Shown: one piece after another, positions 2,367 to 64,000 of the stretch
Layout of the letters: the number at the start of each line of letters is the position of its first letter
Position numbering within the stretch: the stretch's first letter is position 1
NCBI GenBank assembly: GCA_964016885.1
Contig: OZ024747.1
Coordinates: 66,278,001-66,342,000, forward strand
Reading direction: 5' to 3'
From: Eledone cirrhosa
Lineage: Eukaryota
Length of the DNA stretch: 64,000 nucleotides
The notes under the pieces: generated by a model
What the model was told of the DNA's origin: nothing
The model's database searches: none
Seen by the model: the letters and a program-made list of their open reading frames with translations, nothing else
Made by a program: the position numbers and the translations under genes

Positions 2367-2587
2367 GGCACAGAATCTCAGAAATTCCACAACAACGCCA
2401 CTGAAGTGATATTAATATATTGTGTAGACGCCACCTTGCCCAGTTTCCAACAGTTGATCTACTGTATTTACCAATTCATTATAATGTTTCTGGCTCCCAC
2501 CTTAATTTTGGCTATCTGTTACTCAAAGGTCATATATGTATTGTGGGTTAGCACCAAACAACTAGCCCAGATGACCTTCACAGAAAG
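2367..2587 (+). CDS. Class A (rhodopsin-like) neuropeptide-type GPCR, internal exon (ECL2-TM5-start of ICL3)
   Basis: Acceptor tttattcag|GGC, donor AG|gtcagt; encodes GTESQKFHNNATEVILIYC...YQFIIMFLAPTLILAICYSKVIYVLW (TM5 P/Y pattern); ends phase 2, matching the exon at 48602. Confidence 0.88.
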
Positions 2588-11935: not shown

Positions 11936-12125
11936 ATAACAAAGGAATTGTGGTAAGGAACCAGATGGACCATAACACACCAGAGTACTCAATACTTAGT
12001 GTAGTAGAGTGGGAAATAGGAAAATGTATGACCCCGACGGCAGAGCTCATGCCGTTTCGACGGCTATTTCTGGACTCAAAATACCCGTCGAAACGGCTTG
12101 AGCTCTGCCGTCGGGGTCATACTTT
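11936..12125 (-). mobile_element. PLE 3'-terminal fragment (relative of the 20-25 kb element) with fold-back
   Basis: Homologous to the reverse complement of 25640-25780; inverted arms 12026-12063 / 12085-12122. Confidence 0.7.
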
Positions 12126-12180
<55 letters not shown>

Positions 12181-12653
12181 GCACACACAAACGGTTAATT
12201 AACACTTATTTACATAAAACACAATACATATAGACATATAGCACCTGCATATAATCCGGAATTATTAGATGGGATAGAATCTAACCAGATAGAAATTTGA
12301 AGAACATACGCAGTATCAAATGTTAGACATTAGCATGCATATGACGAAGGACGCAAGCAAAGCAGGGTAAAAGTAGCAAGCTGCAAAAAAAAGTGTGTAT
12401 TTAGGTTGAAGTAAAAGACAGTACAAAGACGGGTGTTGTGTTGGTGTAAATGGTAGCACAGTGGTCCGGATAACCAAAGATGTGGATTCGACTCCCATGT
12501 ACGTCAATACGCATCTTTTTTTTCCATTTCTTCGGGGGTTCTTAACCCCACTATCAGGCTAAATAATTTCTTTAATTTCTTTAGTCAAAATACGGCGATA
12601 GCTAACATTTCTAATAATTTCAAATCCACTCGCTGTTTCGAAAATATTCTTAC

Positions 12654-15337: not shown

Positions 15338-15480
15338 ATTAGATTTTTAGCGTGGTAATAAATAGCCACGAGCATAATTGGGCTATTTATTACCACGCTA
15401 AAAATCTAATTTAGTCCAGTCCAGAAATGGCTGTCGAAACGGCTTGAGCTCTGCCGTCGGAGTCTTGAACATTTTCCTAT
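15338..15480 (+). mobile_element. PLE 3' fragment with 30-bp fold-back and HHR 3' half
   Basis: Arms 15338-15367 / 15381-15410, then gtccagaaatggctgtcgaaacggcttgagctctgccgtcgg, homologous to 25641-25685; ends in (TA)n. Confidence 0.65.
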
Positions 15481-20186: not shown

Positions 20187-20224
<38 letters not shown>

Positions 20225-20236
20225 GGAACCAGTAAG

Positions 20237-20330
20237 ACCCCGACAGCTGAGCTCAAGCCGTTTCGACGGCTAATTCTGGACTAAATGAAAATTTGTCCTG
20301 GTATTTAAATAGCCGATCTTCTCAAGGGGT
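20237..20330 (-). ncRNA. Type I hammerhead ribozyme, U3-A8 variant (left-arm copy)
   Basis: Reverse complement of 25592-25685. Confidence 0.78.
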
Positions 20331-21427
20331 AATTCCATATATGGTCAAAGTGATTGTCAAAAATCAGTAGTAATTCTGTGGTTGCAAATTAGTTGGGGAG
20401 ATGGTGGCTAAACCTGCCAGTAGGAGAAAGAGGGGAGGGGTGGAGTAGACCCAATCAAGCGTTGGTAGTGCCAGCTACAGCTGGGCATGAGGTCAAAGAA
20501 GATACAGGGGAGGGGGAGGAGGAGGAAGTCGGAACGGTAGGTAGAACAATGGGGGGTAGAAATATATAGGAAAGAAAAAATACTGAGAGTGGAGAAAAGC
20601 AAATAAGTGTAAAGAAAAAAGTAAAGTAAATTCTACGACCTAGGTCTCTAGCTATTGTTAGGCTAGAATAAATAAATAAAGAAAGAAAGAAAGAAGTAAA
20701 GAAAGAAATAAAGAAATAACGAAATAAGTAAAAGAACTAGGTGGGACGGAATAGGCAAGGACCCTTTTAAGAGGTATAAGTACGTAAATGATACGGTGAC
20801 GGGTCAACAAAAGGGGCCAAAATACTAAAGAGACTACCACGAAATAAACAATAAAGGTTTCCATCCCGGGCACAATGCCAGCAACCACCCAGTGCAGCAA
20901 AGTGAACTAGTACGAGATAATAATTCTGAGTCCCGAGAAAAATATATACTAATGCTAACTCTAAAAGATCTAAAACAAGCTACATGAAAGTTCGTACGAA
21001 GTAAAGGTAGAATACGGAAAAATAAATTCAGAATCCACCCCGCCCAAAAGAAAAGCGAAGAAAGAAATACTGAAACGAAAAAATAAGGCATAAGTGCCAC
21101 TAAGAAATATAGAGGGCACAGAGAATAGTGGGAGCGGTCGGAAAAAGGGGACAAGTATCCGGGGTCTAAACCAACTGCTATAAAGGGCGGAGTCCGCCAA
21201 ATCTATCATAGACTAGGGGAGGGGGTGGGGGTACTAAGGCTACAAGGGGCCAAAGGGCAGCCTCGGGTGGGCGAGAAAAGACGCCGACAAAGGAGAAGAG
21301 CTGGGGTAGAAGGACTAAGGAGAGAGGGGGGGGAGGAAATAAAGGAAGCGATAAAAGAATACAAAGAAGATCTTACGTCTCCCTTGGCAAGCAGGGGTTA
21401 CCCATTGCAAAATCGGCAAGTGGGGTG

Positions 21428-23524
21428 TTATAGCCCTAGTCTACCCCCCGGGTCATTATGGGGTTTGAGGGCGAGGTAAGTCCTACGCAATCTATGTTTA
21501 CATGCAGTAACCAGTTCATCTTTCTTGTTTAGGAGTTTGTCCGTCGAAAACAGCATTTGTAAAGTTTCCTCCGAGCATAAATTGCACGGACGGCGTCCTC
21601 CCGTGTAAGAATTGGCTCTGGACAGTAATCTCCAAGTGAGATCATAGGTGATGTTGTTGTCCTTGAGGTCCCATATGTGGCCCGAAAGTGTAGTGGCGTG
21701 ACGCCGGGCCGGGTTTCGGAAGGTATGTCTATGTTGGTATAGCCGGGTCTTGAAGTCACATGCGGTAAGTCCTATATAGGCTTTGTTGGAGGTATCCGTC
21801 CTCACGTTGCACTGGTAGATCACATTACGGTCTCTGCATCTATTGTCGAGTGGGCAAATGGATCTATCCGGGCAGTTACACCTCCTGGTCGGTTCTCCAC
21901 TGCTATTTAGGTTATTTCTGCCATCGGAGTTGAGTTTTTTGTTGTTAGAGGAGACGATGTTTTGTGCGAAGTTTGGTGTAGTGCTGTAAGAGAGTTTGAT
22001 GGTATTTTTGTTAATTATGTTGTGGTAGCGGTGTTGTAATGGGAAGTGTTTTTCAATGAGCCTAAAGAATAGTTTCCCGATGGGAGTTGTCACCTCTGCG
22101 TTGTGGGGAGGATTGAACCATGTTACATTGCGTGAGCGGCGGTGTCTCCTGCTGGTTCCGCTAATGGGAGCTGGACAGTAGGATATTTCCTCCCGGAAAC
22201 CACTCCGCTTGAGGGCCTGGTTGTAATAAGGCGCATGTTCATCGAATATCCGCTCATTAGCTGACAAACGGGATATGCGGAGGGAGATGTTTTTGACCAG
22301 GTTGTTTGTGATGTTCCTAGGATGGTTTGATCGGCGGTGGATGTAGTGCAGATTGTCATTAGGTTTCCTGTATGGGTAGTACAGGTCGTTTTCGAGGTCG
22401 AGGGTCACGTCCAGGAAGTTTACTCGGGTCAGGGACGTTTGTAGGGTTATTTTAAATCCCCAGTCGCGGAAGAATCTGATTAATTGTTTCCGGACCCGAT
22501 CTGTACTACTGGGGTTGTACCCTTTAAGGGTAAGGAGCCCATCATCACGGTACAATCCACCACCGAATGCAGGAAACATATCAGTGAGTTTGGCTATTAG
22601 GAATAATCCTATAAGATCTGTGACCTCCGCCGAATCCGTGGCGCCCATGCTGACGTCGAAGGGTGAGTCGGGAGCTCTTTTTATCCATTTAGAGTCGTCA
22701 AAGAGTAAGACTGTCTTCCTGTCGTGGAGGATAATTTTTCTTTCCTGGTCGGTGATGGGCACAAGTGTTTCGGCGAAGTCCAAGGCGGCAGTAAGTAGCG
22801 GTAAGGTGATTGAAGCATAGTAGCTCTCTATGTCGAACTGTATGAATTTAGTTTCTCGTTTATCCTCCATATTGCTGAACCAGGAGATTACTTTCTGGGT
22901 GTTGATCCATAGGCTAAGTCGGGTGTGTTGCTTGACTTTTGGTATCACGCGGTCTAGGATTTTTTTGCTGATTCTCCCTATGTCGGACTTCGTTGGGTTA
23001 ATAAGCCTGATAGAGGGTTTACGGTCAAAATCGGATTTATGGTCCTTCAGTGTGAAGTATGGTGTCCGTGGGTCTAGAGGTTCCGTGCGGTCGGCGATCC
23101 CGAGGCTGGAGGTAATTTGTTGTCCATCTCGATTTATGTCCTCGATGCAAGAGTGGTTGGCCTTTTTATAGGTGGAGTTTAGGCTGCTCCTGATCAGTGT
23201 GTCGTATCTGTCAGGGTTGACAAAGTATAGGTTCCCAGTTTTATCCGAATGCACCATGATGTCATTTGTGTTATCATACTCTGTTAAGTTGCTACGGAGT
23301 TTTTGTAGGAATCGGTTGTGTCTGGGTTTAAGTTTAATGTTCTTGACCAGTTGGAAGAGGTCATTCTCGAAGGGTGCGAGCAAGGGGTTCAGGGGCGGAG
23401 ATTTGTAGGTAATAAATCCGAATCTCTCCTTGGTGCCGAAGTCTTGGTTGCCGCAATATCTGTCATAGGAAAAAGTTCTCCATCTAAGTCTTTTCGCAAA
23501 TAGATCGATTTTTTGCGTGAGCAT
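21428..23524 (-). CDS. PLE polyprotein: reverse transcriptase + Cys linker + C-terminal GIY-YIG endonuclease (N-terminus cut at the inversion junction)
   Basis: KDHK..IRLINP, FDIESYY, SMGA, LYRDDG, FLDV, CNC..CPL..C, NVIYQC..YIGLT..FKTRLYQH; 698 aa uninterrupted; Nematis-like clade is inference. Confidence 0.9.
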   Translation of the reverse strand: MLTQKIDLFAKRLRWRTFSYDRYCGNQDFGTKERFGFITYKSPPLNPLLAPFENDLFQLVKNIKLKPRHNRFLQKLRSNLTEYDNTNDIMVHSDKTGNLYFVNPDRYDTLIRSSLNSTYKKANHSCIEDINRDGQQITSSLGIADRTEPLDPRTPYFTLKDHKSDFDRKPSIRLINPTKSDIGRISKKILDRVIPKVKQHTRLSLWINTQKVISWFSNMEDKRETKFIQFDIESYYASITLPLLTAALDFAETLVPITDQERKIILHDRKTVLLFDDSKWIKRAPDSPFDVSMGATDSAEVTDLIGLFLIAKLTDMFPAFGGGLYRDDGLLTLKGYNPSSTDRVRKQLIRFFRDWGFKITLQTSLTRVNFLDVTLDLENDLYYPYRKPNDNLHYIHRRSNHPRNITNNLVKNISLRISRLSANERIFDEHAPYYNQALKRSGFREEISYCPAPISGTSRRHRRSRNVTWFNPPHNAEVTTPIGKLFFRLIEKHFPLQHRYHNIINKNTIKLSYSTTPNFAQNIVSSNNKKLNSDGRNNLNSSGEPTRRCNCPDRSICPLDNRCRDRNVIYQCNVRTDTSNKAYIGLTACDFKTRLYQHRHTFRNPARRHATTLSGHIWDLKDNNITYDLTWRLLSRANSYTGGRRPCNLCSEETLQMLFSTDKLLNKKDELVTACKHRLRRTYLALKPHNDPGGRLGL

Positions 23525-23532
23525 CCGAAGGT

Positions 23533-24494
23533 ACGACCTGTACTACCCATACAGGAAACCTAATGACAATCTGCACTACATCCACCGCCGATCAAACCAT
23601 CCTAGGAACATCACAAACAACCTGGTCAAAAACATCTCCCTCCGCATATCCCGTTTGTCAGCTAATGAGCGGATATTCGATGAACATGCGCCTTATTACA
23701 ACCAGGCCCTCAAGCGGAGTGGTTTCCGGGAGGAAATATCCTACTGTCCAGCTCCCATTAGCGGAATCAGCAGGAGACACCGCCGCTCACGCAATGTAAC
23801 ATGGTTCAATCCTCCCCACAACGCAGAGGTGACAACTCCCATCGGGAAACTATTCTTTAGGCTCATTGAAAAACACTTCCCATTACAACACCGCTACCAC
23901 AACATAATTAACAAAAATACCATCAAACTCTCTTACAGCACTACACCAAACTTCGCACAAAACATCGTCTCCTCTAACAACAAAAAACTCAACTCCGATG
24001 GCAGAAATAACCTAAATAGCAGTGGAGAACCGACCAGGAGGTGTAACTGCCCGGATAGATCCATTTGCCCACTCGACAATAGATGCAGAGACCGTAATGT
24101 GATCTACCAGTGCAACGTGAGGACGGATACCTCCAACAAAGCCTATATAGGACTTACCGCATGTGACTTCAAGACCCGGCTATACCAACATAGACATACC
24201 TTCCGAAACCCGGCCCGGCGTCACGCCACTACACTTTCGGGCCACATATGGGACCTCAAGGACAACAACATCACCTATGATCTCACTTGGAGATTACTGT
24301 CCAGAGCCAATTCTTACACGGGAGGACGCCGTCCGTGCAATTTATGCTCGGAGGAAACTTTACAAATGCTGTTTTCGACGGACCAACTCCTAAACAAGAA
24401 AGATGAACTGGTTACTGCATGTAAACATAGATTGCGTAGGACTTACCTCGCCCTCAAACCCCATAATGACCCGGGGGGTAGACTAGGGCTATAA
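23533..24494 (+). CDS. Inverted duplicate of the PLE thumb + GIY-YIG region (5'-truncated)
   Basis: Matches the C-terminal ~320 aa of the 21428-23524 ORF except T/I and K/Q. Confidence 0.8.
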
Positions 24495-25591
24495 CACCCC
24501 ACTTGCCGATTTTGCAATGGGTAACCCCTGCTTGCCAAGGGAGACGTAAGATCTTCTTTGTATTCTTTTATCGCTTCCTTTATTTCCTTCCCCCCCTCTC
24601 TCCTTAGTCCTTCTACCCCAGCTCTTCTCCTTTGTCGGCGTCTTTTCTCGCCCACCCGAGGCTGCCCTTTGGCCCCTTGTAGCCTTAGTACCCCCACCCC
24701 CTCCCCTAGTCTATGATAGATTTGGCGGACTCCGCCCTTTATAGCAGTTGGTTTAGACCCCGGATACTTGTCCCCTTTTTCCGACCGCTCCCACTATTCT
24801 CTGTGCCCTCTATATTTCTTAGTGGCACTTATGCCTTATTTTTTCGTTTCAGTATTTCTTTCTTCGCTTTTCTTTTGGGCGGGGTGGATTCTGAATTTAT
24901 TTTTCCGTATTCTACCTTTACTTCGTACGAACTTTCATGTAGCTTGTTTTAGATCTTTTAGAGTTAGCATTAGTATATATTTTTCTCGGGACTCAGAATT
25001 ATTATCTCGTACTAGTTCACTTTGCTGCACTGGGTGGTTGCTGGCATTGTGCCCGGGATGGAAACCTTTATTGTTTATTTCGTGGTAGTCTCTTTAGTAT
25101 TTTGGCCCCTTTTGTTGACCCGTCACCGTATCATTTACGTACTTATACCTCTTAAAAGGGTCCTTGCCTATTCCGTCCCACCTAGTTCTTTTACTTATTT
25201 CGTTATTTCTTTATTTCTTTCTTTACTTCTTTCTTTCTTTCTTTATTTATTTATTCTAGCCTAACAATAGCTAGAGACCTAGGTCGTAGAATTTACTTTA
25301 CTTTTTTCTTTACACTTATTTGCTTTTCTCCACTCTCAGTATTTTTTCTTTCCTATATATTTCTACCCCCCATTGTTCTACCTACCGTTCCGACTTCCTC
25401 CTCCTCCCCCTCCCCTGTATCTTCTTTGACCTCATGCCCAGCTGTAGCTGGCACTACCAACGCTTGATTGGGTCTACTCCACCCCTCCCCTCTTTCTCCT
25501 ACTGGCAGGTTTAGCCACCATCTCCCCAACTAATTTGCAACCACAGAATTACTACTGATTTTTGACAATCACTTTGACCATATATGGAATT

Positions 25592-25685
25592 ACCCCTTGA
25601 GAAGATCGGCTATTTAAATACCAGGACAAATTTTCATTTAGTCCAGAATTAGCCGTCGAAACGGCTTGAGCTCAGCTGTCGGGGT
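25592..25685 (+). ncRNA. Type I hammerhead ribozyme, U3-A8 core variant (family C), in the PLE 3' region
   Basis: acccc-TTGAGAA-ga(t)cggcta...ggac..gtcc...tagccgtc-GAAA-cggct tgagctc agctg-TC-ggggt; predicted GUC cleavage after 25680. Confidence 0.8.
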
Positions 25686-25796
25686 CTTACTGGTTCCTAT
25701 TACCCACTCTACTACCTCAAGTATTGAGTACTTTGGTGCGTTATGGTCCACCTGGTTCCTTACCACATTTCCTTCGTTATATATATATATATATAT

Positions 25797-37614: not shown

Positions 37615-40600
37615 GGGAAGAAGACGCACGAGGTGACGGAGGTCATGAAATCGCTCCCGTAAGTTTTGAATTTTTAACATATTTAAATCATTTGTGAAAT
37701 AACAACTCTTAGTACAAATGCTACGTAAAGCACCCGGCTTGAGCCCCCAAAAAATTCGGACCCAAAATATATTGTTATAAGGCTCAAATATTCAAATATT
37801 CAACTTTGTATTGTACACTGTATATCCAAAAAAAAATGGCTATAAATGGAAGAAGAAGAACCCCCCCCCCCCTCCTCTCCTCTGGCTACACTATATAGGA
37901 CAGCTAAACTCACCAACACCAGAAACTAGATACACCACCCACCCCATCATCTGTGTACACTAAACACAACAGCATTTTCACCTTCACCGCCACCGCTCAC
38001 TACGGCCATCATTACCACCACTATCCCATCACCGCCGCCACCACCCCTTGACTCCTTCACTGCTGCTGCCACCGCTACAGCACCATCACTACAGTAATAC
38101 GGCTCAAATATTCAAATATTCAACTTTGTATTGTACACTGTATATCCAAAAAAAATAAAATGGCTATAAATGGAAGAAGAAGAACCCCCCCCTCCTCTCC
38201 TCTGGCTACACTATATAGGACAGCGAAACTCACCAACACCAGAAACTAGATACACCACCCACCCCATCATCTGTGTACACTAAACACAACAGCATTTTCA
38301 CCTTCACCGCCACCGCTCACTACGGCCATCATTACCACCACTATCCCATCACCGCCGCCACCACCCCTTGACTCCTTCACTGCTGCTGCCACCGCTACAG
38401 CACCATCACTACAGTAATACGGTCGCATCACCGCCACCACTGCCTCGGTATCGACACCACCACCACCACTGTCTCAGTATCGCCAACGCCGCCAGTCTCT
38501 GCTGGCTGCCACTTCCACATTATAGAATTCCTACTACTAACAAAGAGGAAGGCATCAAAATATATAGATAGACTCAAAAGAAAAAAGAAAAAACAAACAA
38601 CAAAAGCAGCACAGCAACAACAGCAAAAAACGAGAAAAACAAACAGAGAAAAACAAAAACAAAAAAAGACACCCCAAAAACGTAAAGAAAATAAGAATGA
38701 AGAGAGAAGCAGGCGGACGGACAGAGAAGAGGGGGGAAAAAGTAAAACTTAAAAAACAAAAACTAAGTCAGACATTCGAATACTACATTACAATGAAACT
38801 TATGCTTATTCATTTTTGGGGCCCTTTCTGCCCGTGTGTTTGTTTGTTTATGTGTGTCCGTATACAGCGTGGTGATAATGCCACACAAGGGCCAAGTGGG
38901 ATGGCGGATCCACAGATGGCTATGTAAACATACATTCGCCAATCCTCGATAAGAGTGTTTAAATATCGAACATAAACAGTTCGAATAACGGTGAAATGGA
39001 GACTAGAACGTCATGTGACAGACTCTCACCCAACAGGTGCCCCCTGGCTCAGCAGCAGGAACCTGACTGTCAACCAAATACTGCTGATGTTGGAGGAAGA
39101 AGAAGAAGGAAAGGGGCCAGAACCAACTGGACGAAAGAATTGAATAGAACTGTTATGCAATGCTACCTGAAAAGTAACCCCAAGGAGAGGGGCTACAGGA
39201 GACGGATGCATAACATCTGGAACGAGATTGGTTTATTTAAATTAGATGAACAAAAATTGGCCGGGCAGGCTCGGGTAATAAGAACTAATGGGTGGATAAG
39301 CGAGCTGGAACTGGAGGAACTGAGCAGAGAGAATGGCTTGGAGATGGCGGGTGTAGTATGCCAGACAAGCGAGCCGGCGGGAAATGAAGGTGAGGAGGTC
39401 CTGAGAACGGAGGAACCACCCGAAGCAGACAATGATCTGAATACTGAGATAAATAATACCTGGAACAGAGATACGGCCACTGAGGAGATGAATGCTGACG
39501 GGCTAGGACAAGATTCGGTTGACATCCTAAATTTAGTGGTAGATGAGTTGAACAATGATAGTGGGAGACCTATGAACCTAAGATTTGTAGACAGGAAAAA
39601 GTTAAAAGAAACAACAGCTAAGGTAAACAAAGTCATCCCATACCTTGAGGCGAGGAGTCTTCACCAGTGCAACAATATCCTCAAAGCAACAGCAAATACG
39701 GTGAGGAAACTACTTGGTATAAAAGCGAGAGGAAACAACAGACAAGAAAGAGCAGAGCCGTGGTGGAAGAAGCGACTGAGTGGGCAAATCGAGGAAATGA
39801 GAAATGACATAGGAAAGCTTGAGTCACTACTGAATGGGACACTAAAAAACATAGGCACTAAAAATAGACTGGAAATAAAATACAAAACTAGGAGTAAAAA
39901 GCTAAATATTATCATAGAGGAATTGAAGCAACGCATTGTAGCAAAGAGTGCCAAAATCAGGCGATACGAGAACAGAGTCAGTCAGTATAAACAGAACCGC
40001 ATGTTCGACAACAACCAGAAGATGCTGTTTGGACAGCTTGAGGGGAAAGAAAGAGGCAACGACTTGATCCCTGGGGCGGAACAAGCTAAAACATTCTGGA
40101 GAGGAATATGGGAGCAGGATGTTAGACACAATGCCCAGGCAGGGTGGATTGAGACAGTACAGAGGGAGATCGGTGAGCAGGCACAGCAACAGACTGATTT
40201 GAGTATCACAGTTGAAACTCTTAAGGGGCAAGCCAAAAAACTAACCAACTGGAAATCACCAGGCCCAGATGGTGTTCAGGGGTATTGGATTAAACATTTA
40301 ACATCCCTCCACCCGAAGCTGACGGCCATGTTCAATGACTGATTGGTGTCGGGTGAGGTGCCAGAGTGGTTGACAAAAGGTACCACAGTTCTGATAATGA
40401 AAGACCGAATCAAGGGTAATGATGTTACCAACTATAGACCTATCACATGTCTGCCCGTAATGTGGAAACTGTTGACGAGCATTGTGTCTGAGGAAATCTA
40501 CCATCACCTCCACACAAACAACTTGTTGCCGGACGAACAGAAAGGATGCCGAAAGAAGTCACGTGGTACAAAGGACCAGTTGCTTATTGATAAGATGGTA

Positions 40601-42490
40601 ATGGGGAATTGAAGGAGGAGACACACTGATCTTGCCATGGGATGGATAGACTACAGAAAGGCATTTGACATGGTGCCTCATTCCTGGATCACCAAAAGCC
40701 TGGAGATCTTCAGGGTGGCAGATAACATCAGACAGTTGCTGGGCAGGAGTATGGGGTCCTGGGAGACAGAGTTGACATCAACTGGAGTATCCTTGGGAAG
40801 CGTGAAGATCAAGAGAGGTATCTTCCAGGGAGATAGCCTGTCCCCTCTGTTGTTTGTCCTTGCCCTGATGCCCTTGACCATTATGCTGCGAAAAGTGAGA
40901 GCAGGATACAAGTTGGGAAGGGGAGAGCTTACCATCAATCACCTCCTCTTCATGGACGATCTTAAGCTCTTCGGGAAAAGTGAGAAGGAGTTGGATGTGC
41001 TTGTTGACACTGTCCGTATTTTCAGCAGTGATATATGTATGCAGTTTGGTATTGGTAAATGTGGAGTCATTGTGATGAGGAGGGGTAGGTTGAGCAGAAG
41101 TAACGGGATCCAGATACCAACAGGTGAGATGATAAAGGAAATTGACTCTGAGGAAGGATACAAGTATTTGGGCGTTCTGGAGGCTGATGGCATAAAGAAC
41201 AAAAAAATGAAGGAATTGTTAAGAACTGAATACATTCGGAGAGTAAGGAGCGTATTGAAGTCACATCTGAACAGCAGAAATGCCATAAGCGCAGTAAATT
41301 CCCGAGCTGTGTCTATTATTAGGTACAGTGCGGGAATTCTGAGATGGAATGTTGCTGAACAAAAAGAAATGGATAGGAAGACTAGGAAGCTATTGACTAT
41401 CTACAACATGTTCCACAAGAGGAGTGATGTCGATAGACTCTACCTAAGGAGATCTGAGGGTGGAAGAGGTCTTATCAGCATAGAGGACTGTGTTCAGATG
41501 GAGAAAAACAACCTATACAAATACGTGACCTATAGTAAGGAGCCAATGCTCAGAGCTGTACTGAAGGAGGGGACAGTAGGCCAGGGGATATCCAAGGAGG
41601 AAATAACATCAAGGAGGAAGAGCAGCCTTAAGGGAAAATCCCTTCATAGTACCTTCTTTGAGAAAACTGAATTTAGAGATCCACAGACATGGAACTGGTT
41701 GAGAAGAGGAGACCTCAAAAAGGCTACAGAAGGAATGCTAATGGCTGCGCAGGAGCAGGCCCTCAAAACGAAGTGGTTGAAGCACCATATCTACAAGGAG
41801 GAGGCTAGCCCACTGTGCAGGATCTGTGGAGAGAGAGAGGAGACTGTGGCTCACATTGTGTCCGAGTGTAAACACCTAGCCCAGACCCACTATAAGGGCT
41901 GGAGACACGATGTGATGGGCAGGGTGATCCACTGGCACCTGTGCAAAGTAAACAATCTACCACATTCTGAGAAATGGTATGAGCATAGGCCAGAGGCGGT
42001 GATGGAGAACAGTCAGGTGAAGGTGCTGTGGGATTTTAGGATACAGACGGACAAAAAACTGGAACACAATAGACCTGACCTGGTGGTTGTGGACAAAGAA
42101 AAAAGATCGTGCCTGATTGTGGATGTGGCCTGCCCGTTCGACACGAGAGTGCAAGAGAAGGAGAGGGAGAAAATTAACCGATACCAGGACCTAAAGTGGG
42201 AGGTGAAAAGGATTTGGAACTGCCATGAAGTCAAAGTGATCCCGATTGTCATAGGCGCACTGGGGACTATCTCCAAAGGTTTCCAGGGATGGTTAAAGAA
42301 AATCGGCCCCTTCACGCTTTTTGGAACGCTTCAAAAGGCATGCTTGCTTGGAACGGCAAGAACCCTCCGATACGTCCTGAATATCTGAGGCTGCAGGTAG
42401 TGGCTTGATATTCAATCCAACGGACTTTCCAGTTAACCAACATCAATGACTGAGATTCAAGGAATAACAATAACAATAATAATAATAATA
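37614..42490 (+). mobile_element. Apparently full-length Dong/R4-clade LINE in a (TAA)n repeat
   Basis: (TAA)n on both sides; ~1.38-kb 5' UTR with a 320-bp tandem duplication (37781/38101); near-identical to 55467-60318 (-). Confidence 0.92.
38996..42388 (+). pseudogene. Dong/R4 RT-REL ORF with two in-frame TGA codons (40340-42, 40610-12)
   Basis: Colinear with the intact 1130-aa ORF at 55541-58933; both TGAs replace TGC (Cys). Confidence 0.85.
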
Positions 42491-42606
42491 ATAATAAATA
42501 AATAAAGAAAAAAAAGGAAATATATATATATATACATACATACATATATACATACACACATACATACACATACACACACATATACACACACACATACAAT
42601 AATAAC

Positions 42607-42946: not shown

Positions 42947-42959
<13 letters not shown>

Positions 42960-42980
<21 letters not shown>

Positions 42981-45452
42981 GATAGCAACTAACAGTGCTG
43001 CGATCGAATGTGGCTTTTTAGCCCAGCCAATGATCTAAAATGTCTTGCACAGAGTCGGCAACCAAAACATTCACTGGGAATAGTCGGCTGTGGTTGGAGT
43101 TCGTGTACTTTTGCATGTCGCTTGAGCCCTCCTGCTGATTTACATTCTCTACCACATGTTTGGCAAGCATGATGAGTAGCATCTCCAACAGCAGCCTGGT
43201 AGTCAACCACTGGTCTTACTTTATGACTGCGAAGACGACTTTCGAGTCCAGCTTTGCTTAGGCAGAGTCTCGCACAGACGCTGCATGTCAGCACCATAGG
43301 AGGACCCTCGCCGTCCGGAAGTGCAACAGCAATGCCCTTCCTCACATCCCGCTTTACTTTCTCGTGTGCGATTCGAGATGCCTCAAAGGCAACTTTTCCC
43401 TCATATACAGTCTTTCTCCATTTATTACGATCAGCAGCAATATTTTCCCATGTATCAGCAGACATGTTAGCATCTTTCAGAGAGGCTTTCAAGGAATCCT
43501 TATACCTCTTTTTTGGTTTATGTGGCGGTCGTTTTCCTTTAACCAACTCTCCGTAGAAGAGTTGTTTTGGTATTCTAGAATCCTTCATCCTGGCAAGGTG
43601 ACCACTCCAACGGAGTCGTTGCTTAAGCACAAGAGCTTCTATACTGTCACACATAGAGCTTTCCAAAATCTCGACATCACTGATGTGGTCCCTCCAGTGA
43701 ACGGCGTGGATCCGTCTGAGACACATCTGATGGAAACGCTCCAATTGCTTAAGGTGGTGTCGATATGTGACCCAGGTCTCGCAGGCATAAAGAAGACAAG
43801 ATAGTACACATGCCCTGTACACCTTTACCTTTGTCCTCCTGCATATGTCTCGCCGACCCCAGAGTCGCCTTTCTAGCTTTCCGAAAGCATCACTTGCTTT
43901 CCTAATCCTAAGTGAGATTTCACTGTCAAGGTTGCCGTATCGATTGACAGTGCTTCCCAGGTAGACAAACTGATCAACCACTCCAAGTCGTTTGCCATAC
44001 ACATAGATGTTTGGTTCAGTATACTGCTTACTAGGGGCAGGTTGGTACATGATGACGGTTTTCTTGAGACTGACAGTCAAACCCAGGGCAGTGCAAGCGT
44101 CAGAAAATGCATTCAAAATGTGCTGCATATCACTCTCTGTGTGCGCTACAAGATCGCAATCATCTGCATACAAGAGGTCTCTTATGATTGATGTAAATAC
44201 TTTTGTCTTCGCAGCAAAGCGCCTGATGTTAAATATGCTGCCTGAGGTTCGATATCGGATGTAAACACCATGCTCGCAATTCCTTAATGCAATACAGAAA
44301 CCCATTGCAAAGTATATGGCAAACAGGGTCGGTGCTGGAATATCCCCCTGTTTCACTCCATTTTTTACTGAGATAGGCTCCGACATGTTACCTCCGACAT
44401 TAACCCAAGCCTTCATATAGTCATGGAAAGACCTAACTAAAGCAAGGAACTTATCAGGGCAACCAAGTTTCTGGAGAACCTTCCATAATGCATCTCTGTT
44501 GACAGTATCGAAAGCCTTTGTCAGATCGACAAAAACCTGATACAGATCCAAGCCTTGTTCAATGCACTTCTCCTGGAGCTATCTGGCTGAGAAAATCATA
44601 TCAGTAGTGCCGCGTCCAGCACGAAAACCAGATTGACTTTCAGGAAGAACACAATCTGCAATGTGTGTCAGCAGACGGTCCAGAAGCACCCTACATAAAA
44701 CTTTCCCTACGACAGAAAGCAATGATATACCTCTGTAGTTCCCACAATCATTCCTGTTACCCTTTCCCTTGTACAAGACCACCATTACTGCATCTCTCCA
44801 GTCCTCAGGTACGAATTCATTAGCCCATATCCTTCCAAACAAAGAGTGCAGATGTTGCAGGAGTCTCTCACCACCATATTGTAGGAGCTCAGCATGTATG
44901 CCATCCATACCTGGAGATCTTCCACTGTTTAGCTTCGAAATAGCCACTACAACCTCCACAAGCGTCGGAGGTTCTGCGAGAGCTACTTTCACAGGACTTT
45001 CTGGAATGAGATTGAGGAAATCTTCACTGACGACAGACGGCTGATTCAAAAGATCATCAAAGTGCTCTCGCCACCTTCGTAGAATTCTCTGTGAGTCACG
45101 AAGAAGTTCTTTGCCATCCTTGCTGCGAAGCGGTGTCACCAGAGAAGAAGACGGTCCATAAACCTCACGAAAGAGATTGTACAACAGCTTTGTGTTTGTG
45201 GAATCAGACGCAGTTTGTATCTCACCAGCCTTCTCACTCCACCACTGATCCTTCATCTGAGAAAGACTCCGCCTAACACGTGATTTTACATCCCTGAGCT
45301 CCTCATGCAACGTATTCCTCTCCTGTGGTTTTGCCGTCAAGTAGCGTGACAGAGCATGCCTCTTATCAGCCAACAAGTCTTCTATATGTACATCATTCTC
45401 ATTAAACCAGTCCTGATGTTTTCTCTGCACCAATCCCAGAACACGCCTGCCT
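42960..45452 (-). mobile_element. RTE-clade LINE, 5'-truncated, premature stop at 44579-44581
   Basis: RT motifs YRGISLL, FVDLTKAFD, GVKQG, YADD and C-terminal C2H2 fingers; highly similar to 61463-63940; joined to (CATA)n at the 5' break. Confidence 0.92.
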
Positions 45453-45487
45453 ACATACATACATACATACATACATACATACATACA

Positions 45488-45965: not shown

Positions 45966-48236
45966 GTGTATAAATCTACCAAAATATACGGTAGTGTCCA
46001 ATCCGTATGAAGAAAGAACTCAATGTAATCCAAATATCATGAAAAGAGAAGATACATTCAAAAATTTTCGATGAAAATCACAGGAAAACAGAGTCAAGAT
46101 AAATTAATAAAAACAATGAATAAAACAAAAAACAAGTTCCTTATATTAAAAAATTCATGATTTTACGATCCTTTCTAGGATATATATGTATGTTGGTATG
46201 TATATCATATAGATCTATGTAAAAATATTACAAACTATCAGAGGAAATACACATACCTTCACATATATATATGCTGTCTTCAGAAACAATGAGATTTGGG
46301 TTATTGAAAGAAAACAACAAAGATTTAATATAATAGGTCTGTTTGGGAACAGGTTTTGAATTGACCAATAGAAAAGTAGTAAGAAGTCAAGTTGATAGAA
46401 TAGTAGTAGTATAAATTTATTTTAGAGGTAGATGAATGCAGACTTATGTTTTGAATGGAAAGAATACTTTGAATGAAAAGAATACTTTGGGGGTGAAAAG
46501 AGGTCAAGCCGATGAAGGGTACACGAAAATTTGATGTTATTAAAGAATAATGTTAAAAACGAAGGAGAGTAAAATTTTAGGGTAAAGGTATTAGTGAGAA
46601 ATACCAATCTTATTTAAAACACAAAGAATTTAGATCTATAACAAGAAATTAAATTAATTGATAGGTATACTTGTAAGGATAAATTTATATTAATTCATAT
46701 GGATGTGATAAATAAGAATTAGATGTTATTAAAGAATGTTGTTAAAAACGAGGGAAAATAAAATTTTGGGATAAGTGTAGTAGTGAGAAATACCAATCTT
46801 ATATAGACTACAAGGAATCTAGATTCATAACAGGAATTTATATGTATACTTTTAGGTATTAAATTTAGGAAAAGAGAGCTGTAAAAGGGAAATAAAATTA
46901 TGAAGTTCTCTGTAGTAAAGTACTAATTATAGGTTAACTAAATTAAAAAAACTAATTATAATAATATGTAAAATATAAGTGTAAGGTGTATATTAATTAG
47001 GTTTATAATATTTGAAAGTTCTTCTAATTCTATAATTGCAAGATATAATTAATTCTTGTCGCTTATTAATAGGATATCCTTAGATTTCATTATTTCAAAA
47101 AGTTCCTAGGAAGCATAATCTACACTCATATCTGTTATTTTGATAAGGGGTGGCCCTTTTGAGCACACTCCAGGTCAGGTTGTAATCAATATTCTTTTTT
47201 CTATAATTATTAATTGTTTCAGCCAAGGATGTTGTATTAGCTAATGCGGCATTTTTAAAACTATGTTTGTGGGTATTAAATCTTACTTTAAATTGGTTAG
47301 ACGTAGCTCCTATATATGAGTAAGTTGAGTCCTTAGTGCTAATTTTACATTTATATACTATGTTATTAATAAGACAATTTCCCTTTAATGGGCAATTTCT
47401 TTTGTTTCTAGAGTTACAACCATTCGTGAATATTATATCAGGGGAGTTAGTCAAATTTGGAGTGGAATTTACTCGACTTGTTATATGTGAAGGAGATGGT
47501 TGTTTGTTGCGGTTTATTTTAGTATTATGGTTGGTTTGATGTGTTGGTGGTATATTCGTGATTATTTTACATTTATATGCGGTGTACGCACTTATATTTT
47601 GTTGTATATTTTTGGTAGTGGAGTAGGAAAATTTGACGGTTGATCTATTTAAAATTTGATGGTATTTATGGTTTGGCGGGAAGTTTTTCTCTAGGATAGT
47701 AAAATATTTTTTAGGGATATTATCTTTAATTTGTAGATTAAATGGAGCATTATACCAAGTAACTCGTCTATTACGGTTTCGATGTTGTTTTTTATATTTA
47801 TACCATGTATCAGGATGTTTACTAAGAGAGTTAGTATTAGTGAATTTATTATATATAGGTTTAGTTAGATTAACTGATTTAGGTGTTTTAGTCTGATTAT
47901 TAGTAATTTTGTTAGTAATGTTATTAACGTATATTGGAGTATTATGATGAATGGTTTTTTGAAAGCTATTATATTTTATGTGAGAAGAAGTAGAGAAATT
48001 AAGTTTTAGGTTGGTATTTCTGGATGTAGTGTGAGTGGCATTTAGGTGTGTGCTTTTCATTTGGTGTTTGTTGGTAATATTGAGTTGTATGTTTGAAGTA
48101 TTATTGGTGCAATGTATATAGACTAATTTGTTTTTGTGGCCGCTTCTAGCTAAAGCTTCGTTATAGAAGGGCGCATTTTTATCGAATACCTCCTGGTTAG
48201 ATGAAAGGTTAGAAATTCTGAGTGAGATGTTATATG
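45966..48236 (-). mobile_element. Second PLE family remnant (thumb + GIY-YIG + 3' UTR)
   Basis: ORF 47095-48236 NISLRISNLSS..VTWYNAPF..CPLKGNC..IVYKC..YIGAT..FKVRFNTH, frameshift near the end; 3' UTR carries HHR family B; palindrome at the 5' break. Confidence 0.82.
46155..46292 (-). ncRNA. Hammerhead family B copy in the PLE 3' UTR
   Basis: Minus strand: tcattgttt-CTGAAGA-cagcatatatatatgtg...catatatatccta-GAAA-ggatcg-TA-aaatcatga; stem III carries a C>G change. Confidence 0.55.
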
Positions 48237-48446
48237 CTATATATATATATATATATATATATATAGCATATAACATCTCACTCAGAATTTCTAACCTGTT
48301 TGCTGAAAATTAAAGTACGTGAGACTGTCACTACTCTAAAACAATAGCGTAAGGTCTTCGAAACGCTTTTAATTAAGCATACATTGTATTGCAAAATACA
48401 CTATATATACATTCATATATATATCGCTATTTCAGAGCACCAATTC

Positions 48447-49454: not shown

Positions 49455-49734
49455 ACGATTCTGCAAAATCGCCATCCATGCCTTAAAAGTAGTGAATAAT
49501 TTATGTTGTGGAAGGCTGTAGAGGAATGAGCTTACAAAGGAGTAGATATGGGCTAGAAAGTATTAGATATTTTATATTGCGGTGGACTGAGCAAACATGG
49601 CGAGCTTGCGGAGGAAATGGAAGCTTGGAAATATTGGGTATTTATGTTTGGATGGACTGTGTACAAATCTCCATACTACCTAAAATTAAACTAAAACTGT
49701 TTTCATTCGTTCCTATTTTCTTATTTTGTTTCAG

Positions 49735-49860
49735 GTGATCAAAATGCTGCTTGCAATTATATTGATCTTTTTGGTATGTTGGGGCCCAAAGCTACTGTTC
49801 CGAATAATGAGACGTGTTGATACAGCTCCCTACTTCACCAGTCCCAGTCTATTTATTAAG
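49735..49860 (+). CDS. GPCR exon: TM6-ECL3
   Basis: tttcag|GTG ... AAG|gtaaca; VIKMLLAIILIFLVCWGP (CWxP motif). Confidence 0.92.
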
Positions 49861-55426: not shown

Positions 55427-58400
55427 TATTATTATTATTATTATTATTATTATTGTTATTGTTATTCTTTGAATCTCAGTCATTGATGTTGGTTAACTGG
55501 AAAGTCCGTTGGATTGAATATCAAGCCACTACCTGCAGCCTCAGATATTCAGGACGTATCGGAGGGTTCTTGCCGTTCCAAGCAAGCATGCCTTTTGAAG
55601 CGTTCCAAAAAGCGTGAAGGGGCCGATTTTCTTTAACCATCCCTGGAAACCTTTGGAGATAGTCCCCAGTGCGCCTATGACAATCGGGATCACTTTGACT
55701 TCATGGCAGTTCCAAATCCTTTTCACCTCCCACTTTAGGTTCTGGTATCGGTTAATTTTCTCCCTCTCCTTCTCTTGCACTCTCGTGTCGAACGGGCAGG
55801 CCACATCCACAATCAGGCACGATCTTTTTTCTTTGTCCACAACCACCAGGTCAGGTCTATTGTGTTCCAGTTTTTTGTCCGTCTGTATCCTAAAATCCCA
55901 CAGCACCTTCACCTGACTGTTCTCCATCACCGCCTCTGGCCTATGCTCATACCATTTCTCAGAATGTGGTAGATTGTTTACTTTGCACAGGTGCCAGTGG
56001 ATCACCCTGCCCATCACATCGTGTCTCCAGCCCTTATAGTGGGTCTGGGCTAGGTGTTTACACTCGGACACAATGTGAGCCACAGTCTCCTCTCTCTCTC
56101 CACAGATCCTGCACAGTGGGCTAGCCTCCTCCTTGTAGATATGGTGCTTCAACCACTTCGTTTTGAGGGCCTGCTCCTGCGCAGCCATTAGCATTCCTTC
56201 TGTAGCCTTTTTGAGGTCTCCTCTTCTCAACCAGTTCCATGTCTGTGGATCTCTAAATTCAGTTTTCTCAAAGAAGGTACTATGAAGGGATTTTCCCTTA
56301 AGGCTGCTCTTCCTCCTTGATGTTATTTCCTCCTTGGATATCCCCTGGCCTACTGTCCCCTCCTTCAGTACAGCTCTGAGCATTGGCTCCTTACTATAGG
56401 TCACGTATTTGTATAGGTTGTTTTTCTCCATCTGAACACAGTCCTCTATGCTGATAAGACCTCTTCCACCCTCAGATCTCCTTAGGTAGAGTCTATCGAC
56501 ATCACTCCTCTTGTGGAACATGTTGTAGATAGTCAATAGCTTCCTAGTCTTCCTATCCATTTCTTTTTGTTCAGCAACATTCCATCTCAGAATTCCCGCA
56601 CTGTACCTAATAATAGACACAGCTCGGGAATTTACTGCGCTTATGGCATTTCTGCTGTTCAGATGTGACTTCAATACGCTCCTTACTCTCCGAATGTATT
56701 CAGTTCTTAACAATTCCTTCATTTTTTTGTTCTTTATGCCATCAGCCTCCAGAACGCCCAAATACTTGTATCCTTCCTCAGAGTCAATTTCCTTTATCAT
56801 CTCACCTGTTGGTATCTGGATCCCGTTACTTCTGCTCAACCTACCCCTCCTCATCACAATGACTCCACATTTACCAATACCAAACTGCATACATATATCA
56901 CTGCTGAAAATACGGACAGTGTCAACAAGCACATCCAACTCCTTCTCACTTTTCCCGAAGAGCTTAAGATCGTCCATGAAGAGGAGGTGATTGATGGTAA
57001 GCTCTCCCCTTCCCAACTTGTATCCTGCTCTCACTTTTCGCAGCATAATGGTCAAGGGCATCAGGGCAAGGACAAACAACAGAGGGGACAGGCTATCTCC
57101 CTGGAAGATACCTCTCTTGATCTTCACGCTTCCCAAGGATACTCCAGTTGATGTCAACTCTGTCTCCCAGGACCCCATACTCCTGCCCAGCAACTGTCTG
57201 ATGTTATCTGCCACCCTGAAGATCTCCAGGCTTTTGGTGATCCAGGAATGAGGCACCATGTCAAATGCCTTTCTGTAGTCTATCCATCCCATGGCAAGAT
57301 CAGTGTGTCTCCTCCTGCAATTCCCCATTACCATCTTATCAATAAGCAACTGGTCCTTTGTACCACGTGACTTCTTTCGGCATCCTTTCTGTTCGTCCGG
57401 CAACAAGTTGTTTGTGTGGAGGTGATGGTAGATTTCCTCAGACACAATGCTCGTCAACAGTTTCCACATTACGGGCAGACATGTGATAGGTCTATAGTTG
57501 GTAACATCATTACCCTTGATTCGGTCTTTCATTATCAGAACTGTGGTACCTTTTGTCAACCACTCTGGCACCTCACCCGACACCAAGCAGTCATTGAACA
57601 TGGCCGTCAGCTTCGGGTGGAGGGATGTTAAATGTTTAATCCAATACCCCTGCACACCATCTGGGCCTGGTGATTTCCAGTTGGTTAGTTTTTTGGCTTG
57701 CCCCTTAAGAGTTTCAACTGTGATACTCAAATCAGTCTGTTGCTGTGCCTGCTCACCGATCTCCCTCTGTACTGTCTCAATCCACCCTGCCTGGGCATTG
57801 TGTCTAACATCCTGCTCCCATATTCCTCTCCAGAATGTTTTAGCTTGTTCCGCCCCAGGGATCAAGTCGTTGCCTCTTTCTTTCCCCTCAAGCTGTCCAA
57901 ACAGCATCTTCTGGTTGTTGTCGAACATGCGGTTCTGTTTATACTGACTGACTCTGTTCTCGTATCGCCTGATTTTGGCACTCTTTGCTACAATGCGTTG
58001 CTTCAATTCCTCTATGATAATATTTAGCTTTTTACTCCTAGTTTTGTATTTTATTTCCAGTCTATTTTTAGTGCCTATGTTTTTTAGTGTCCCATTCAGT
58101 AGTGACTCAAGCTTTCCTATGTCATTTCTCATTTCCTCGATTTGCCCACTCAGTCGCTTCTTCCACCACGGCTCTGCTCTTTCTTGTCTGTTGTTTCCTC
58201 TCGCTTTTATACCAAGTAGTTTCCTCACCGTATTTGCTGTTGCTTTGAGGATATTGTTGCACTGGTGAAGACTCCTCGCCTCAAGGTATGGGATGACTTT
58301 GTTTACCTTAGCTGTTGTTTCTTTTAACTTTTTCCTGTCTACAAATCTTAGGTTCATAGGTCTCCCACTATCATTGTTCAACTCATCTACCACTAAATTT

Positions 58401-60387: not shown

Positions 60388-63300
60388 ATGATGTTCCAGA
60401 ACAATATAAAAGAGATAATTGGCAATTTAGGTTCTGGAACAAAAAAGATCATTGGCAATAAGGGCAGGGGCCCCAAGTTATCACAGCCTGGGCCCGCTCG
60501 TCATCGTGCCATTGTAATAGAGCCAAACAAGGCATTTAGTCTTGGCTGCTGGAACGTACGGACGCTGCTTGACAGGGATTCCTTGGAGCGTCCTGAACGA
60601 AGGACCGCTCTTGTTGCAAAGGAGCTTCGACGTTACGATCTTGACATCGTGGCTTTATCTGAGACGAGGTTAGCTGGAGATGGTCATCTTACGGAATTTT
60701 GTGGAGAATATACATTCTTCTGGAAAGGAAGAGATGAAGGAACCAGAAGAGAGGCTGGGGTAGGATTTGCTAAGACTGTACTTGTGAATAAATTAGAAGA
60801 ATTCCCAGTAGGGATTAGTGAGCGTCTTATGTCCATGAGAGTTCCGCTGGACAGAGGAAGATATGCTACCCTGGTGAGTGTGTATGCTCCAACTATGAAT
60901 TCTGTCGATGAAGAAAAACTGTCCTTTTACCATGCCTTGAAAGGTGTTCTAAGAAATATCCCTCAGGCAGACAAAGTCATCGTGCTTGGTGACTTTAATG
61001 CTAGAGTGGGTAGGGATTTTAACACATGGAATGTAATCGGAAGACATGGGGTGGGAAAGTGTAACAGCAATGGTATGCTCCTGCTGCAGATGTGTGAGGA
61101 GCTGGATCTGTGTGTTACCAACACCATGTTCCAACAAAAGAACAAATTCAAGACCACATGGATGCATCCTGCATCTAAAGAATGGCATCTTTTGGACTAC
61201 GTCCTAGTCAGGATGCGTGACAGACAGGATGTGCAGTGTGTTCGTGTTCTTCGTGGAGCTGAGTGCTGGACGGACCACCGCCTGGTACGCGCAAAAGTGA
61301 AACTAATCACCAAACGTAAAATCCAGGCTCCTGGTGTTACCCTGCCCAAAAGATTGAATGCTGCTCGTCTTAAGGATAAAAATGTGAAGAGGACATTGGA
61401 AGAAGAGATGCAGGCTGCTGATCTTGGTGAGGATTGGCCGACCCTTAAAAAGTCGGTTTATGATGTAGGCAGGCGTGTTCTGGGATTGGTGCAGAGAAAA
61501 CATCAGGACTGGTTTAATGAGAATGATGTACATATAGAAGACTTGTTGGCTGATAAGAGGCGTGCTCTGTCACGCTACTTGACGGCAAAACCACAGGAGA
61601 GGAATACGTTGCATGAGGAGCTCAGGGATGTAAAATCACGTGTTAGGCGGAGTCTTTCTCAGATGAAGGATCAGTGGTGGAGTGAGAAGGCTGGTGAGAT
61701 ACAAATTGCGTCTGATTCCAATAACACAAAGCTGTTGTACAGTCTCTTGCATGAGGTTTATGGACCGTCTTCTTCTCTGGTGACACTGCTTCGCAGCAAG
61801 GATGGCAAAGAACTTCTTCGTGACTCACAGGGAATTCTACGAAGGTGGCGAGAGCACTTTGATGATCTTTTGAATCAGCCGTCTGTCGTCAGTGAAGATT
61901 TCCTCAATCTCATTCCAGAAAGTCCTGTGAAAGTAGCTCTCGCAGAACCTCCGACGCTTGTGGCGGTTGCAGTGGCTATTTCGAAGCTGAACAGTGGAAG
62001 ATCTCCAGGTATGGATGGCATACATGCTGAGCTCCTACAATATGGTGGTGAGAGACTCCTGCAACATCTGCACTCTTTGTTTGGAAGGATATGGGCTAAT
62101 GAATCCGTACCTGAGGACTGGAGAGATGTAGTAATGGTGGTCTTGTACAAGGGAAAAGGTAACAGGAATGATTGTGGAAACTACAGAGGTATATCATTGC
62201 TTTCTGTCGTAGGGAAAGTTTTATGTAGGGTGCTTCTGGACCGTCTGCTGACACACATTGCAGATTGTGTTCTTCCTGAAAGTCAATCTGGTTTTCGTGC
62301 TGGACGTGGCACTACTGATATGATCTTCTCAGCTAGACAGCTCCAGGAGAAGTGCATTGAACAAGGCTTGGATCTGTATCAGGTTTTTGTCGATCTGACA
62401 AAGGCTTTCGATGCTGTCAACAGAGAGGCATTATGGAAGATTCTCCAGAAACTTGGTTGCCCTGATAAGTTCCTTGCTTTAGTTAGGTCTTTCCATGACG
62501 ACATGAAGGCTTGGGTTAATGTCGGAGGTAACATGTCGGAGCCTATCTCAGTAAAAAATGGAGTGAAACAGGGGGATATTCCAGCACCGACCCTGTTTGC
62601 CATATACTTTGCAATGGTTTTCTGTATTGCATTCAGGAATTGCGAGAATGGTGTTTATATCCGATATCGATCCTCACGCAGCATATTTAACATCAGGCGC
62701 TTTGCTGCGAAGACAAAAGTATTTACATCAATCATAATAGACCTCTTGTATGCAGATGATTGCGATCTTTTAGCGCACACAGAGAGTGATATGCAGCACA
62801 TTTTGAATGCATTTTCATACGCTTGCACTGCCCTGGGTTTGACTGTCAGTCTCAAGAAAACCGTCGTCATGTACCAACCTGCCCCTAGTAAGCAGTACAC
62901 TGAACCAAACATCTATGTGTATGGCAAACGACTTGGAGTGGTTGATCAGTTTGTCTACCTGGGAAGCACTGTCAATCGATACGGCAACCTTGACAGTGAA
63001 ATCTCACTTAGGATTAGGAAAGCAAGTGATGCTTTCGGAAAGCTAGAAAGGCGACTCTGGGGTCGGCGAGACATATGCAGGAGGACAAAGGTAAAGGTGT
63101 ACAGGGCATGTGTACTCTCTTGTCTTCTTTATGCCTGTGAGACCTGGGTCACATATCGACACCACCTTAAGCAATTGGAGCGTTTCCATCAGATGTGTCT
63201 CAGACGGATCCATGGCGTTCACTGGAGGGACCACATCAGTGATGTCGAGATTTTAGAAAGCTCTATGTGTGACAGTATAGAAGCTCTTGTGCTTAAGCAA

Positions 63301-63930: not shown

Positions 63931-64000
63931 TTGTTATCGTGTGTGTGTGTAGATATGCTTATGTGCGTGCGTATGTGTGTATATATATATGTATATGTAT

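Follow-up and report, generated by a model that had tools for sequence, protein, structure and literature searches.

Introduction

The window analysed here is a stretch of 64,000 nucleotides from the Eledone cirrhosa genome (contig OZ024747.1, positions 66,278,001 to 66,342,000 of the forward strand), and it contains, on both strands, a short motif that reads as a hammerhead ribozyme with the core UUGAGAA, i.e., with a U3-A8 pair. The locus raises the question of whether such a motif cuts RNA in vivo, and of what its core signifies. The core by itself is ordinary. An earlier note on this DNA had made U3-A8 its main point, but the pair is not new: a natural U3-A8 variant was reported by Perreault et al. 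(2011; PMC3088659), who state that U3-A8 is active in vitro, citing Przybilski and Hammann (2007), and U3-A8 occurs in the Cercyon Penelope-like elements (PLEs) of Schistosoma mansoni, with about 1,300 matches (Cervera and de la Pena, 2014; PMC4209133). The ribozyme cores of Hydra-clade PLEs tabulated by Craig et al. (2021; PMC8557442) all begin CUGAnGA; U3-A8 is known in kind, and is new only for the Hydra clade as far as that table goes. The interest of the Eledone family lies instead in a record of insertion breakpoints and in a natural series of mismatches at the 3-8 pair. Our reading, to which we assign a probability of roughly 0.7, is that the motif at the 3' end of this PLE cleaves a minority of element RNAs after C17 in vivo, with mostly uncut RNA serving as the template for insertion.

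A type I hammerhead motif on both strands

The complete type I fold claimed for this site could be read directly from the letters of the window:

25592..25685, + strand: type I hammerhead motif, core UUGAGAA (U3-A8), with a predicted cut at 25680/25681 and conservation across the family
20237..20330, - strand: second copy of the hammerhead, same sequence, in the minus arm; predicted cut at 20242/20241
25592-25596 and 25681-25685, + strand: stem I, ACCCC with GGGGT (read from sequence)
25597 to 25602 and beyond, + strand: core residues U3 (25597), U4, G5, A6, G7, A8 (25602) and A9 (read from sequence)
25604 and 25657, + strand: stem II base pair G10.1-C11.1 (read from sequence)
Beyond G10.1-C11.1, + strand: remainder of stem II, an A-U pair, a bulged U, CGGCUA/UAGCCG and a distal GGAC/GUCC
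25658-25661, + strand: GAAA
25662-25666 and 25674-25678, + strand: stem III
25680, + strand: C17 of the GUC cleavage triplet
25667..25674, + strand: palindromic loop III (UGAGCUCA, from the sequence)
25586..25697, + strand: stem I extension predicted by folding, GGAAUU with GGUUCC, enclosing a 6-nt bulge that is a candidate tertiary-contact site

The copy at 20237-20330 (-) is identical to that at 25592-25685 (+), as had been said of it. The minimum free energy structure of the window motif is the hammerhead fold, with three helices around the core and stem I open, and its folding energy is unexceptional (z -1.4, with 20 of 200 shuffles equally stable). Cofolding predicts that a dimer is possible through the palindromic loop III. 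The bulge in stem I is itself a prediction from folding, and its sequence differs from subfamily to subfamily. An Rfam search of 10-30 kb of the window returned no hammerhead among 131 matches at E<=5; the expectation that canonical CTGANGA searches would pass over the motif was correct, and Rfam overlooks it too. Two fragments at 12085-12115 and 15435-15460, which had been grouped with the motif, do keep stem III, but the 5' core is absent from them, so that they are truncated copies of older subfamilies and not ribozymes. What lifts the motif above chance is its family (see below), and our verdict is that the hammerhead is genuine, carries an already known core variant and belongs to a young PLE of Hydra type.

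The motif is carried by a young Hydra-clade PLE

The insertion consists of two 5'-truncated arms of one Hydra-clade PLE, joined head to head at 23533, and the window holds shorter copies besides:

23533..25779, + strand: plus arm, 5'-truncated, with a partial RT thumb and GIY-YIG, the 3' UTR, the ribozyme and the tail
20222..23533, - strand: minus arm, 5'-truncated, with motifs RWR, DKT, YRDD, CxCx5C, GIY-YIG, CxxC and CxH
23533-21428, - strand: minus-arm ORF, without the first 20 of 717 codons
25700..25779, + strand: 80-nt PLE tail, then (TA)n; it spans the interval from one usual 3' end, 19 nt past the predicted cut, to the other at 99 nt
11937..12130, no single strand: short head-to-head pair of an older subfamily, with only the 3' half of the motif (5' core absent)
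15395..15480, + strand: short older-subfamily copy whose truncation falls just after the 5' core

Both arms terminate in (TA)n, the plus arm carrying the 80-nt tail in addition, and they differ at 3 of 2,168 bases, none of them within the motif. The minus copy had been placed in an ORF-bearing arm, and the ORF is there but incomplete at its start. Full units of the element, found in head-to-tail arrays, are 3,531 bp long and differ from one another by 0-1 bases; these tandem units carry an open 717-aa ORF whose start codon lies 190 nt after the predicted cut of the preceding motif. In a protein search of the genome, every one of the 150 candidates scored, out of 60,392, was 98-100% identical. 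The earlier description of the carrier as a young PLE is supported.

The protein has RWR at position 37, where the clade definition gives RWK, and DKT at 117, lacks GxKF, and ends in a CxCx5C linker, GIY-YIG, CxxC and CxH at positions 572, 591, 670 and 698; copies are inserted into (TA)n. These protein motifs, the (TA)n targeting and the position of the ribozyme near the 3' end are those of the Hydra clade (PMC8557442), an assignment that rests on the text definition of the motifs, with reference proteins compared by eye. By eye, the start of the ORF resembles Hydra-1_Obim and stem II the G...CUA/UAG...C type (PMC8557442). There is a single ORF, and the 3,531-bp unit exceeds the 'generally' <3 kb of the clade definition (PMC8557442) because the 3' UTR is long. 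Relative to the Hydra-clade ribozymes listed there, which have short stems II and III, the Eledone family is distinguished by U3-A8, U3·G8 and C3·A8 cores and a 3.5-kb unit. Pfam gave no relevant match for the PLE protein. A second PLE ORF of the same kind, degraded, with RNxTWxNxP and GIY-YIG-like motifs, lies at 47095-48309 (-) of the window.

The catalytic core is fixed except at the 3-8 pair and position 7

A genome-wide search found 2,149 exact copies of the window-type core UUGAGAA. The mismatched core CUGAGAA (C3·A8) has 978 exact copies, and cores with any G8 and the same anchors gave 48 exact matches. Two core-agnostic patterns returned 1,664 and 2,241 matches, and in the first 100 of each, N7 was A, C, G or U according to subfamily, with only sporadic changes at U4, G5, A6 and A9. 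Extrapolating from 24 of 100 such matches, about 400 further copies join the 978 exact ones, i.e., about 1,400 copies belong to the mismatch stage.

The majority sequences of 11 subfamilies show no change at any of the 12 core positions outside 3, 7 and 8 (U4, G5, A6, A9, G12, A13, A14, the pair A15.1-U16.1 and H17 among them), whereas only 17 of 73 columns of the upstream UTR are unchanged (Fisher p 4e-7; p 0.001 for the 5' core alone), and N7 changed four times, through all four bases. This contrast indicates that the register is right and that the catalytic core looks to be under selection. A register with G7-A-A inserted before 'G8 A9' was ruled out, as it breaks stem II and N7 is freely variable.

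The 3-8 pair behaved differently. It is a Watson-Crick pair in the window subfamily (U-A), and is not one in the U·G and C·A subfamilies. The oldest group, retrieved with a core-blind pattern, has U3·G8 in 19 of 21 copies and A8 in none, and a sister family has the core UUGAUAA in 10 of 11 copies. A first tree, built with the core masked from 102 of 137 copies (35 that were too short were dropped), was ladder-like, its tips shortening from about 0.07-0.16 to 0.005; in a second tree of 102 rows, subsampled from 140 of 163, the sister family joined inside the oldest group. Branch support into and out of the C·A stage was 100/100 and 100/99. From the tip lengths and the outgroup we infer the order U-A (sister family), U·G, U-A, C·A, U-A for the pair, and on this tree U3 of the window is likely a reversion from the C·A mismatch. 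A shift of register to a C3-G7 pair was also considered: G7 is constant through the C3 stage, N7 changes are few, and a few older-type U3-G7-A8 copies suggest that G7 preceded C3.

The U3-A8 pair had been interpreted as a compensatory swap. That description fits when the family is set against other Hydra-clade ribozymes, whose listed cores are all CUGAnGA; it does not fit within the family, where an ancestral C3-G8 subfamily was sought and not found, such copies being scattered single mutants in the trees. Since no such subfamily was found and the pair passes through U·G and C·A, the U3-A8 swap is not obligatory.

Insertions stop at the predicted scissile bond

Insertion stops at the scissile bond offer a test of cleavage that needs a genome sequence and nothing else, and any genome rich in PLEs would serve to repeat it. 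Exact copies number 43,564 for the motif's 3' half and roughly 6,000 for the 5'-core patterns; most insertions are therefore very short. Tail-bearing copies with a break ahead of G12/A13 number 5,529, and in the first 100 of them the 5' breakpoint fell most often on G1.1, the first base past the predicted cut, with 10 cases against a mean of 2.4 per position over 37 positions (corrected p 0.008). Apparent peaks at -20 and -5 were rejected as real stops, being palindromic overlaps shifted there by alignment.

Short fold-back insertions resolve these ends further. With a pattern that admits arm ends anywhere between +2 and about -12, 382 loci were recovered genome-wide, and the junctions of the first 50 were sorted by script. 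Both arms ended at G1.1 with a 1-6-nt insert between them in 22; blunt CCCC/GGGG junctions, which are ambiguous, accounted for 9, and the others had one arm at G1.1 (7), were templated (8) or were of other kinds (4). Where the insert was untemplated, 51 of the 66 arm ends lay at G1.1, 6 at +1, 5 at +2 and 4 upstream. All 50 loci had a tail arm and 48 a clear (TA)n-ended partner arm; with one of each per locus, the fold-backs look like single events from two starts. The short fold-back loci are, in number, about 1% of the 37,754 copies in which the site was read through. Insertions ending at C17, as priming from the cut 3' end would give, were absent from the 12 commonest 3' ends of 419 matches. 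The simplest reading of the fold-back ends is run-off from a cleaved 5' end, and the G1.1 stops likely record reverse transcriptase running off self-cleaved RNA in vivo.

An edge at G1.1 might have other origins. If G1.1 were the transcription start of an internal promoter, cDNAs would run off the primary 5' end, and its position at the ribozyme site would be due to chance. PLE promoters lie in the terminal repeat (PMC8557442), C/G fits a pyrimidine-purine start, and such a start would show no dependence on the 3-8 pair. However, the nine single-base inserts among the first 50 loci were all A or T, and none was C. From a capped RNA, the cDNA would be expected to gain mostly a C, so that the inserts are unlike what a cap would give, and the exact match to the scissile bond is left unexplained; we consider a promoter start very improbable. 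Alternatively, the motif could be of hammerhead descent and now mainly a structural signal for the element's protein, with G1.1 marking not a cut but a reverse-transcriptase pause, located at the three-way junction or where the G run ends. If the enzyme paused before stem III, however, it should do so at C17 (-1), and the arm ends of the same 50 loci sit at G1.1 (51 versus 2 at C17), an edge that coincides with the scissile bond to the base. Nor would a structural signal lead us to expect free variation at N7 alongside fixed U4, G5, A6 and G12-A14, or a return of the 3-8 pair to Watson-Crick.

Several further features of the junctions were observed. Joint G1.1 stops on both arms exceed the independent expectation by a rough estimate (loci L251, L254, L275 and others), suggesting that both cDNAs derive from one RNA or one complex. 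Some fold-back inserts copy nearby linker, resembling polymerase-theta joining. The stem II insert is where most insertions break, about 30-45 nt upstream of the cut site; many of them form head-to-head pairs separated by 14-25 nt, and such breaks are also seen at 11937-12130 of the window; annealing of cDNA via the motif's own inverted repeats is a candidate explanation for them.

The stop persists through the C·A stage, and a second fold is predicted to compete

To assign junctions to stages, they were dated by the linker that follows GGGGT. Linkers of the older C·A stage, one of which may take in some U-A copies, gave 17 loci, with both arms at G1.1 in 4 and 14 of 24 arm ends there; the both-arms rate of 4/17 compares with 22/50 in the main sample at a Fisher p of 0.16. 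The linker common to young C·A copies and revertants, a class that is about 70% C·A by a rough estimate, gave 87 loci, or about 1.0% of the class (its size taken from 24 of 100 matches), and in a hand count of the first 50 both arms were at G1.1 in 18. The G1.1 stop did not fade in the mismatch stage; C·A is then tolerated in vivo, or else the stop is non-catalytic. No kinetic data for a C3·A8 mismatch were found in the literature searched.

The RNA has a predicted competing fold:

25651..25666, + strand: competing hairpin AGCCGU-CGAA-ACGGCU, which would bury G12-A14; predicted inactive

RNAalifold, applied to 14 representatives, prefers this alternative, in which GAAA is hidden inside the hairpin and loop III pairs with A9/G10.1; the alternative is conserved no less than the hammerhead, with 94.9% versus 91.4% paired cells. 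In the window type the alternative comes within 0.4 kcal/mol of the hammerhead, and the share predicted to fold as a hammerhead averages about 0.66 over window-type copies (n=22) versus 0.12-0.19 in young C·A copies (n=19), for whose subfamily the alternative is predicted to be dominant (0.80). Most subfamilies have a single G10.1-C11.1 pair above a 2x1 loop, with a pair probability of <=0.10 outside the A10.2 classes. In the sister family, stem II went from G-C through G·U to A-U in one event; this single compensatory change is common to both folds, and covariation tests, which have that one event beneath them, do not separate the two. By these models the competing fold may be a switch, or else the element's real signal.

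These observations lend some weight to the structural signal: the G1.1 stop is unchanged in the C3·A8-stage classes, about 1,400 copies arose with the mismatch, and the alternative fold is conserved and also carries the one compensatory change. Ribozyme-dead mutants of the anole PLE, moreover, insert in vitro regardless (PMC11167929). Set beside the fixed core and the position of the edge, they leave a mainly structural role unlikely in our judgement, and cleavage of a minority of RNAs remains the preferred reading. Taken further, and at somewhat less than even odds, the G1.1 record of in vivo cutting may run unbroken through C3·A8, with the 3-8 pair dispensable and cleavage rationed by a two-state switch. 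Activity in the C3·A8 stage would then come from protein help or from a shift that pairs C3 with G7, and the conserved two-state RNA switch would limit cleavage, leaving most RNA as intact template.

A proposed partial-cleavage cycle and its relation to known systems

The insertions end at two fixed sites in (TA)n, 19 and 99 nt past the cut site, and the short fold-backs have one arm of each 3'-end kind. In the cycle we propose, the two 3' ends would be two reverse-transcription starts. Read-through RNA would take either the hammerhead fold or the inactive hairpin, and cutting would be partial because the two are near-isoenergetic. On uncut RNA, the enzyme would pass C17, which would account for about 99% of copies. 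Where the RNA is cut, the two cDNAs would run off at G1.1, add 1-6 bases and join, giving ACCCC-N-GGGGT junctions. Selection would preserve the catalytic core yet tolerate U·G and C·A at 3-8 over long periods. The window insertion would be one young, promoterless product of this cycle.

Parts of this cycle have counterparts elsewhere. For insertion, the Poseidon element PAc of the anole uses uncut RNA and two internal starts (Frangieh et al., 2024; PMC11167929), and it shares with the cycle proposed for the Eledone family the two internal reverse-transcription starts that define a tail, the priming on both DNA strands and the uncut main template. Its ribozyme differs in that it overlaps the start of the ORF, has C3-G8 and needs protein, and no trace of its cleavage was found in vivo, no RNA-seq reads ending at the cut site; the single 3-8 mismatches C3G and G8C abolished its cleavage (PMC11167929). 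In R2 elements, the positions of 5' junctions follow those of the ribozyme cuts (Eickbush et al., 2013; PMC3774820), so that the genomic junctions mirror the cut as they would here; R2 is another element with a ribozyme of another class (HDV-like), and cleavage sets its normal 5' end, whereas in the Eledone PLE it would mark about 1% of copies. No report of PLE insertions truncated at a hammerhead site was found in the literature searched, which lay mostly outside subscription journals.

With regard to the motif itself, the Cercyon hammerheads are also type I motifs in PLE terminal repeats, with U3-A8, G10.1-C11.1, a palindromic loop III and high copy number. They came from a minimal descriptor (PMC4209133), whereas in the Eledone motif, which belongs to a different PLE clade, stem III is 6 bp long, stem II contains about 37 nt of inserted sequence, and there is the competing hairpin. 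The variants of Perreault et al. (PMC3088659) show the same base-pair swap; in the accessible text of that paper no evolutionary series through both mismatch intermediates is seen, and the Eledone family has one. Through its ladder of subfamilies, nature offers the same ribozyme with U-A, U·G and C·A, so that the kinetics of the three could be compared directly.

The plus copy lies within a host GPCR gene

Exons of a rhodopsin-type GPCR flank the insertion on the plus strand:

2368..2585, + strand: host GPCR exon (TM5), upstream of the insertion (7tm_1, E 0.0011; a fragment below the curated cut-off)
49702..49860, + strand: host GPCR exon (TM6), downstream (7tm_1, E 0.0014)
near 53730, + strand: TM7 NPxxY exon, after the TM6 exon

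The motif is intronic and sense to this gene, and the degraded second PLE ORF lies in the same intron; the placing of the plus copy in the GPCR pre-mRNA by the earlier note was correct. One might suppose that this copy cuts the pre-mRNA, lowering or altering expression, so that the insertion matters to the host, and the window subfamily is indeed the one best predicted to fold as a hammerhead (about 0.66). However, transcription reaches the 2,168-nt antisense arm first, and this arm can pair almost perfectly with the sequence that holds the motif, with a predicted energy of -186 kcal/mol for the arm pairing versus -25 for the motif alone, which makes a ribozyme role in the pre-mRNA unlikely; the plus copy is probably trapped in a 2.2-kb duplex. 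The insertion is moreover very young, one of tens of thousands, and nothing suggests that the window copy is under selection. Of the readings weighed here, an effect on the host is the least probable, and we give it hardly any credence.

Other elements in the window and the genome

The window also contains two young LINE families, each as a near-identical inverted pair, whose family names are presumed from their motifs:

38185-42497 and 55432-59744: LINE pair 1, with a C-terminal restriction-like endonuclease and a 1,141-aa frame
42954-45456 and 61463-63965: LINE pair 2, RTE-like, with a 1,223-aa frame

A tRNA-like stretch at 12435-12506 (+), just above the Rfam threshold (29.9 bits), is possibly a SINE head. 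Elsewhere in the genome, a pair of young tail-to-tail PLE arms (L021:1009-2030; G000:C9:18396222-18399380) shows 54 T>C changes in one arm and 15 A>G in the other, each by far the dominant class on its arm, and looks like an ADAR-hyperedited fold-back RNA that was copied back into the genome. A loose scan gave unrelated hammerhead-like motifs with the usual CUGAnGA core (L008, minus strand, near 3121; L065, minus strand, near 9949; and L077), and locus L066 carries the RT of another PLE type.
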